From sequence record FN394989.1: DNA of 2,827 bases; one strand, written 5' to 3'. Of this stretch, positions 1 to 1,762 are shown in pieces. The DNA is from Enterobacteria phage CUS-3. The notes below the pieces were generated by a model that had not been told where the DNA came from, made no database searches, and saw only the letters and a list, made by a program, of their open reading frames with translations. The position numbers and the translations under genes were made by a program. Position 1 is the stretch's first letter. Every line of letters starts with the position of its first letter.

Positions 1-438
1 ATGGCGCGCCCAACAAAGTATCAAGAGGCGTATGCCGAACAGGCACGCAAACTGTGCTTGCTGGGCTACACCGATGCAGAGCTTGCTGATTTCTTCGAAG
101 TCAGTGAGTCAACTATTAACAAGTGGAAGCTTGATTATCCTGAGTTTTCGGAGTCCATAAAAAAGGGTAAGGCCGTCGCTGATGCAGAAGTTAGTGACCG
201 TCTTTATCAACGCGCTATGGGCTTCGTGGCTCCAGACATCGATATTCGTGTTATTGAAAACAGAATTGTCGAAACTCCGCTTGAGAAGTATTACCCGCCT
301 GATACAACTGCCGCCATCTTCTGGCTTAAGAACCGACAGAAGGATAAATGGCGCGACAAGGTTGATCACGAGCTAACAGGCAAAGACGGCGGCGCAATTC
401 AGATTGAAACATCACCGATGAGCACTCTGTTCGGAAAA
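1..438 (+). CDS. Phage small terminase subunit (DNA-packaging protein, Sf6 gp1-like), 3' end lost in N-run
   Basis: Frame-1 ORF begins with ATG at base 1 and is open for 146 codons to the last real base (438). The protein is small and basic, with a helix-turn-helix-like segment (YTDAELADFFEVSESTINKWK) and a C-terminal tail ending GKDGGAIQIETSPMSTLFGK. This architecture and sequence resemble, from memory, the Sf6-type small terminase of P22-like phages; not verified by search. The TGA at 541-543 in the ORF track lies beyond a 100-N run, so frame continuity is meaningless and the true stop is unknown. Confidence 0.55.
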
Positions 439-538
439 NNNNNNNNNNNNNNNNNNNNNNNNNNNNNNNNNNNNNNNNNNNNNNNNNNNNNNNNNNNNNN
501 NNNNNNNNNNNNNNNNNNNNNNNNNNNNNNNNNNNNNN
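439..538. other. Run of 100 N (unsized scaffold gap or masked sequence)
   Basis: Directly visible. A length of exactly 100 is the usual convention for a gap of unknown size. Flanking content (end of a terminase gene, then the middle of a tailspike gene) cannot be contiguous within 100 nt in an intact phage. Confidence 0.9.
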
Positions 539-1762
539 TCTGAGCCATGTGTAAAATATTATGATGGCATTCTGTATCTGACGACCAGGGGGACATTAAG
601 TACTCAACCCGGTAGTTCATTGCACAGAAGCTCTGATTTAGGTACATCATGGAATTCTCTTCGCTTCCCAAATAATGTTCATCACTCAAACCTTCCTTTT
701 GCCAAAGTTGGCGATGAGCTGATTATTTTTGGCAGTGAGCGCGCATTTGGTGAGTGGGAAGGAGGAGAACCTGATAACCGTTATGCAGGAAACTATCCAA
801 GAACATTTATGACCAGAGTTAACGTCAATGAGTGGAGTCTGGATAATGTAGAGTGGGTTAATGTTACTGATCAGATTTATCAGGGCGGAATAGTTAACTC
901 TGCGGTTGGTGTTGGTTCAGTTTGTATCAAAGACAACTGGCTGTACTACATTTTCGGTGGGGAAGACTTTCTAAACCCATGGAGCATAGGGGATAACAAC
1001 AGAAAATATCCTTATGTTCACGATGGTCACNNNNNNNNNNNNNNNNNNNNNNNNNNNNNNNNNNNNNNNNNNNNNNNNNNNNNNNNNNNNNNNNNNNNNN
1101 NNNNNNNNNNNNNNNNNNNNNNNNNNNNNNNNNNNNNNNNNNNNNNNNNNNNNNNNNNNNNNNNNNNNNNNNNNNNNNNNNNNNNNNNNNNNNNNNNNNN
1201 NNNNNNNNNNNNNNNNNNNNNNNNNNNNNNNNNNNNNNNNNNNNNNNNNNNNNNNNNNNNNNNNNNNNNNNNNNNNNNNNNNNNNNNNNNNNNNNNNNNN
1301 NNNNNNNNNNNNNNNNNNNNNAGCGGCGGTGAAACAACGTCTTCAGCAGATGGTGCAATGATAACGTTGCATGGTTCCAGAAGCAGTACTCCACGTCGCG
1401 CGGTATATAACGCACTCGAACATCTTTTTGAGAACGGAGATGTTAAACCTTATCTTGATAATGTAAATGCTCTTGGTGGTCCGGGAAACAGGTTCTCGAT
1501 AGTTTATCTTGGCTCCAATCCTGTGGTTACCAGTGACGGAACATTAAAGACAGAGCCGGTCTCTCCTGACGAAACATTGCTGGATGCCTGGGGTGACGTC
1601 AGGTATATCGCTTATAAATGGCTGAACGCTGTCGCTATAAAGGGGGAAGAAGGGGCGAGGATACATCATGGTGTAATCGCGCAGCAACTTCGTGATGTTC
1701 TTATTTCTCACGGACTCATGGAAGAAGAAAGCACAACATGCCGCTATGCCTTTCTTTGCTAT
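539..1762 (+). CDS. Tailspike endo-N-acetylneuraminidase (endosialidase), internal and C-terminal portion; 5' and 3' ends missing, interrupted by N-run 1031-1321
   Basis: Frame 2 has no stop codons in 539-1030 (164 codons) or 1322-1762 (147 codons). Segment 1 (…YYDGILYLTTRGT…RSSDLGTSWNSL…KDNWLYYIFGGEDFLNPW…) has beta-propeller sialidase character, including an Asp-box SSDLGTSW at 629-652. Segment 2 (…VVTSDGTLKTEPVSPDE…GARIHHGVIAQQLRDVL…) matches the stalk end and C-terminal intramolecular chaperone domain of K1-phage endosialidases. The 291-N run is a multiple of 3 and keeps the frame. The ORF track misses this frame only because it has no in-window ATG start. Confidence 0.8.
1031..1321. other. 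Run of 291 N inside the tailspike reading frame
   Basis: Directly visible. Length is 97 codons and frame 2 is open on both sides, so the hidden stretch is plausibly a frame-preserving part of the tailspike between propeller and stalk. Confidence 0.9.
1532..1762 (+). other. C-terminal intramolecular chaperone / self-cleaving domain of the tailspike (peptidase S74-like), N-terminal part
   Basis: Ser codon AGT at 1532-1534 and Lys codon AAG at 1547-1549 form the S-D-G-T-L-K motif. This corresponds to the Ser/Lys catalytic dyad at the autocleavage site of endosialidase C-terminal chaperone domains (established for K1F endoNF). The domain continues into the N-run at 1763. Confidence 0.65.

Follow-up and report, generated by a model that had tools for sequence, protein, structure and literature searches.

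In sequence record FN394989.1 (Enterobacteria phage CUS-3), a small terminase gene and the middle of a tailspike gene are separated by nothing but a run of 100 N. Does this join exist in a phage genome, and if not, what do the N stand for? We analysed the whole stretch of 2827 bases, which is called the window here. A preliminary description of the same DNA had termed the join non-syntenic and had offered two readings, namely an unsized scaffold join that hides most of the structural operon, or a decayed prophage remnant with a large internal deletion.

Composition of the window

Inspection of the sequence showed that the window consists of four islands, referred to as pieces 1 to 4 (1–438, 539–1030, 1322–1762 and 2180–2827), with N runs of 100 (439–538), 291 (1031–1321) and 417 bases (1763–2179) between them. 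Position 1030, at which the preliminary description had ended the join, abuts the start of the second N run at 1031. The features are as follows.

1–438, plus strand: small terminase, complete CDS of 146 codons without the stop codon (PHROG 309, alignment with Sf6 gp1, mapping on CP000711)
439–538, no strand: 100-N placeholder of no defined size, standing for ~18.3 kb of prophage DNA (distances in CP000711 and BEN2908)
539–1030, plus strand: siaK1 internal fragment 1, residues 487–650 of 981, catalytic beta-propeller (PF12217, mapping on CP000711)
1031–1321, no strand: 291-N sized gap for an unsequenced stretch of siaK1 of 97 codons, reading frame kept (distances in CP000711 and BEN2908)
1322–1762, plus strand: siaK1 internal fragment 2, residues 748–894, end of the stalk and start of the C-terminal intramolecular chaperone domain (PF12219, PF13884)
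1763–2179, no strand: 417-N sized gap for the 3' end of siaK1 and the intergenic region up to the neuO start codon (distances in CP000711 and BEN2908)
2180–2827, plus strand: neuO CDS with the AAGACTC tract removed (junction 2184|2185), without the stop codon (identity with 3JQY, mapping on CP000711)

The order of the fragments in the record (terminase, tailspike, neuO) is the gene order of the prophage. The genes had been identified correctly beforehand as those of a P22-like phage, with a small terminase and the middle of a tailspike catalytic domain; PHROG 309, Sf6 gp1 and PF12217 all agree with this. The arrangement had also been read correctly: the terminase ORF (1–438) ends at the 100-N run (439–538), and the sequence resumes within the tailspike at codon 487. 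The 'several hundred' N-terminal tailspike codons reported as absent number 486. A test of the join against chance is not applicable, since an N run marks a place and contains no sequence.

Sibling records share the layout of the window

A megablast search against a phage collection returned 17 records (FN394218 and FN394986–FN395002 without FN394989), all under the name Enterobacteria phage CUS-3 and all from different E. coli K1 isolates. They are exactly 2827 bases long each, match the window in four pieces with 98.1–99.8% identity and differ from it by a few point substitutions. One of these records, FN394993, was inspected. Its title reads 'partial proviral terminase gene, siaK1 gene and neuO gene, genotype GT_9', and its partial CDS are located at 1–438, 539–1030, 1322–1762 and 2180–2827, which are the coordinates of the four islands. 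The N runs of FN394993 are identical to those of the window, from which it differs by five bases.

Assemblies made independently from different strains could not have their breakpoints and total length in common, which argues for a concatenation built by the authors of the records. The loci and coordinates (as seen in FN394993) and the length (as seen in all 17 records) are the same, and the records differ by point substitutions. Moreover, the borders of the pieces follow gene or primer design and not coverage, and a tract of variable length has been excised exactly. When mapped on CP000711 and on the genome of E. coli BEN2908, pieces 1 and 4 were found to span their genes from the start codon through the last codon before the stop. 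We conclude from the sibling records that the window is almost certainly an author-built multilocus typing record of CUS-3 and not contiguous DNA. No data point that contradicts this explanation was found in this analysis. With its few point substitutions relative to the sibling records, the window is a further genotype within a typing scheme that already exists.

On this reading, four fragments of the K1 prophage CUS-3 were sequenced separately, and the authors arranged them in the order of the genes in the prophage and filled the spaces with N. The two gaps near neuO (291 and 417 N) were sized to a reference genome, the long interval between terminase and tailspike was given a nominal 100 N, and the hypervariable heptanucleotide tract of neuO was cut out for the comparison of alleles. 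The fragments were presumably PCR amplicons. Judging by the gene set and by strain names with IMT_ and Delta- numbers, the probable source of the record series is Mordhorst et al. 2009 (Environ Microbiol 11:3154–3165; PMID 19671077), a study that is cited in PMC13001214 and PMC3046976.

Distances represented by the N runs

The distance between pieces 1 and 2, which is 100 N in the window, is 18,254 bp in CP000711 and 18,353 bp in E. coli BEN2908. The advance estimate of 15–20 kb was thus accurate. Pieces 2 and 3 are separated by exactly 291 bp in both CP000711 and BEN2908, and 417 bp lie between piece 3 and the ATG of neuO in both genomes (2790 to 2372 in CP000711). Since these true distances equal the lengths of the corresponding N runs, the 291-N and 417-N runs are exact, sized gaps, and only the 100-N run is nominal.

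In BEN2908, the 18-kb interval contains the genes for the large terminase, the portal, a protein at the scaffold position, a P22-type coat, head completion proteins of the gp4 and gp10 types, the tail needle and three DNA-transfer or ejection proteins, as well as an immI-like region with Arc-family repressors and an antirepressor. The idea of an unsized scaffold join consequently stood in one part and fell in the other: the N do hide the structural operon, as the BEN2908 interval demonstrates, but the join is not that of a scaffold, since the record is an author-built concatenation.

We compared ALTERNATIVES on complete genomes, 'hidden operon' versus 'deletion remnant'. With positions 1–1030 of the window as query, matches were obtained in 679 of 5,426 complete E. 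coli genomes. Both pieces at one place (within about 1 kb) occurred in none of the 5,426. The 'non-syntenic join' is an artefact of the record and no feature of any genome. On the function, intactness or inducibility of the prophage in the source strain, the record is silent either way.

The neuO piece and the missing repeat tract

The product of piece 4 is identical to the NeuO crystal structure 3JQY over 214 of 214 aligned residues (E = 3.4e-142) and also matches the Pfam family Hexapep. NeuO is a polysialic acid O-acetyltransferase, and the position of neuO immediately downstream of the tailspike gene is a feature of CUS-3 that the window shares. Bases 6–648 of piece 4 correspond to positions 2234–1592 of CP000711 (minus strand, 100% identity), in which the ATG of neuO is located at 2372. 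Both in CP000711 and in BEN2908, a TAA follows directly after piece 4.

CUS-3 also has a phase-variable AAGACTC tract, located two bases downstream of the start codon of neuO, and this tract is lacking in the window. The neuO gene of CUS-3 starts with ATGTT-(AAGACTC)19-GTTTTCC, as compared with ATGTTGTTTTCC and thus zero copies in the window. We examined the span of pieces 2–4, which measures 2289 bases in the window. In the 57 complete genomes listed, this span exceeded that of the window by exact multiples of 7, and the implied numbers of AAGACTC copies were 5–60, never 0. In natural isolates, 2–93 copies have been reported (PMC3046976).

All sibling records have one and the same length although the copy number varies among isolates, from which we infer that the repeat tract was removed on purpose. 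This was presumably done so that alleles could be aligned and compared; a later study likewise took the repeat tract out of its BLAST query (PMC13001214). The zero-repeat neuO reflects the editing of the record and is no trait of the phage. A natural neuO allele without repeats was considered as a candidate and rejected, given the common length of the sibling records and the presence of no fewer than five copies in any of the listed genomes. The tract drives phase variation of K1 capsule O-acetylation (PMC3046976).

The window and FN394993 differ at base 2184, just before the insertion site of the repeats, where the window has a T (ATGTT) and FN394993 a C (ATGTC). Of the five positions at which the two records differ, three (2184, 2206 and 2216) fall within the first 37 bases of neuO.

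Alternative explanations for the layout

If the window were a scaffold that an assembler had made from draft genome or metagenome data, four contigs of one prophage would have been ordered and joined, and the 100 N would denote a gap of unknown size. This is the customary length for a gap without a size, and the practical consequence, ~18 kb of hidden sequence, would be the same as for a typing record. The breakpoints of a scaffold, however, are specific for an assembly and determined by read coverage or repeats, whereas the 17 records of different isolates are all 2827 bases long and the breakpoints of FN394993, the one inspected, are identical to those of the window. Neither would a scaffold account for pieces that start at ATG codons and end just before stop codons, for a repeat tract that is excised cleanly at its borders, or for a record title that speaks of partial genes and a genotype number (FN394993). 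We therefore regard a scaffold as extremely unlikely. In a decayed CUS-3 remnant, a deletion of ~18 kb would reach from the large terminase gene into the tailspike gene and include its N-terminal half, and the true spacing would be ~100 bp. Decayed prophages of the P22-like type are known from E. coli, but all that speaks for one here is the appearance of the record. The N runs hold no information on adjacency, the junction itself consists of 100 N in place of sequence, and the other N gaps in the record match the distances of intact reference prophages. Furthermore, the complete genome of BEN2908 has the same alleles of all four pieces and retains the full interval, all 17 sibling records would need one common deletion, and, as described above, the two pieces were not found within about 1 kb of each other in any of the 5,426 complete E. 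coli genomes. The large internal deletion proposed in the preliminary description was thus abandoned, and we assign it a negligible probability.

The N runs could also be masks over contiguous sequence of equal length, added by whoever prepared the window. The 291-N and 417-N runs would fit, as each has the exact length of the sequence that it replaces. In contrast, the 100 N replace 18.3 kb, and the neuO repeat tract is missing although masking would not remove bases. In addition, the public record FN394993 has identical N runs, and its flanking CDS are annotated as partial at those very borders. The chance that the runs are masks is as minute as that of a deletion. There is a further scenario, which concerns the source K1 isolate and not the record. 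This isolate could harbour a rearranged or partly deleted CUS-3 that still yields the four amplicons, and hence a domesticated carrier of neuO in place of an inducible phage. We consider this very improbable.

An author-built typing record calls for some caution in the use of such entries. Public phage records can be concatenations of this type in which sized (291 and 417) and nominal (100) N runs are mixed, and variable tracts can be removed from them silently. Anyone who takes such a record for contiguous DNA would wrongly call prophage decay, a non-syntenic gene fusion and a repeat-free neuO that is permanently ON.

Comparison with CUS-3 and other P22-like prophages

The closest relatives of the window, apart from the GenBank series FN394218/FN394986–FN395002 with its common length and four-piece match, are two complete prophages. 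CUS-3 of E. coli K1 RS218 (CP000711; 40,207 bp) is a P22-like phage (Lederbergvirus). Its siaK1 and neuO sequences are 100% identical to the respective pieces of the window, and terminase, tailspike and neuO follow each other in this order on one strand, with the 291-bp and 417-bp distances of the window. It differs from the window by its terminase allele (6 of 438 bases), by the 18,254 bp in place of the 100 N, and by its 19 copies of AAGACTC, of which the window has none.

The prophage of E. coli BEN2908 (NZ_LR740776.1) is 100% identical to the window in all four pieces and thus represents the allele combination of the window. Unlike the window, it is contiguous real DNA, with 18,353 bp of structural genes between terminase and tailspike and with 20 repeats in neuO. 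The prophage adjoins a tRNA-Arg gene and intS. The P22-type structural operon and the integration beside tRNA-Arg with an IntS-type integrase are seen both in BEN2908, with the alleles of the window, and in CP000711; the window lacks them by construction.

In the RefSeq annotation of BEN2908 (NZ_LR740776.1, 2047–2382 of the locus examined), neuO is represented only by a 336-nt 'acyltransferase' stub. The 20 repeats are not a multiple of 3, so that the full reading frame is broken and neuO of BEN2908 is in phase OFF. Automatic annotation under-calls the phase-variable neuO gene.

The late operon of P22 and Sf6 begins with the small terminase and ends with the tailspike, and this gene order as well as the spacing of roughly 18 kb are as in the CUS-3 type. 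Sf6 gp1 matches the C-terminus of the small terminase of the window. The tailspikes differ in their receptor-destroying domain, however: an endorhamnosidase in P22 and, in CUS-3, an endosialidase that is followed by a chaperone domain at the C-terminus. CUS-3 also carries, unlike P22 and Sf6, an O-acetyltransferase cargo gene after the tailspike gene. Through this gene, neuO, the polysialic acid capsule is O-acetylated, and the modification is phase-variable (PMC3046976, PMC13001214). The biology of the locus, with the endosialidase tailspike of CUS-3 and the phase-variable O-acetylation of the K1 capsule by NeuO, has been described already and is known. Each of the four pieces has 98.6–100% identity to a gene that is annotated and has been characterised by experiment.

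Endosialidase tailspike pieces

Translated in frame from 539, piece 2 encodes 164 residues that match positions 192–355 of the 367 positions of the Pfam family PF12217 (End_beta_propel; E = 1.6e-104). These are residues 487–650 of the 981-residue CUS-3 tailspike, encoded by positions 4013–3522 of CP000711 (minus strand, 100% identity); in FN394993, the corresponding piece bears the annotation of a partial siaK1 CDS. Piece 3 maps to positions 3230–2790 of CP000711 (minus strand, 100% identity), and its product matches two Pfam families, PF12219 (End_tail_spike; E = 6.4e-33) and PF13884 (Peptidase_S74, 'chaperone of endosialidase'; E = 1.4e-11). An endosialidase tailspike with a catalytic beta-propeller and a C-terminal chaperone domain is a feature of CUS-3 and is present in the window.

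Within piece 3, positions 1532–1720 cross from the stalk of the endosialidase into its intramolecular chaperone domain (Peptidase_S74). At the border of the two, such tailspikes undergo self-cleavage during maturation. Since piece 3 covers it, the typing fragment samples a functionally constrained junction.

Small terminase piece

Piece 1 is an ORF of 146 codons that starts with ATG and reads straight into the N run. In the PHROGs profile search, its product matched PHROG 309 ('terminase small subunit'; E = 2.1e-68), and in the Pfam search it matched no family. We do not count the missing Pfam match against the identification as a terminase because of the PHROGs match, the Sf6 gp1 structures and the overlap with the start of the large terminase gene. 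The C-terminal 38 residues (109–146, encoded by 325–438 of the window) align nearly identically with the structures 3HEF/4DYC of the Sf6 small terminase gp1. For the N-terminal two thirds, the search of solved structures gave no relative. It is in the N-terminal two thirds that Sf6 gp1 has its DNA-binding domain. The alignment suggests that the small terminase is a mosaic protein with a DNA-recognition domain different from that of Sf6 gp1, and its pac specificity may possibly differ as well.

Piece 1 maps to positions 22705–22268 of CP000711 (minus strand; 98.63% identity, six mismatches in 438 bases), where the annotated small terminase CDS (22265–22705) overlaps the start of the large terminase gene. 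In BEN2908, the three bases directly 3' of piece 1 are TGA. P22-like prophages have the packaging module in common and probably exchange it by recombination, which makes it a weak marker for CUS-3 itself.

Among the matches listed, at least 30 complete E. coli genomes carry the piece 1 allele with 100% identity. Terminase-like sequence was found in 624 complete E. coli genomes, as compared with only 196 for tailspike/neuO, and is also present in the commensal E. coli HS, with 99.3% identity.
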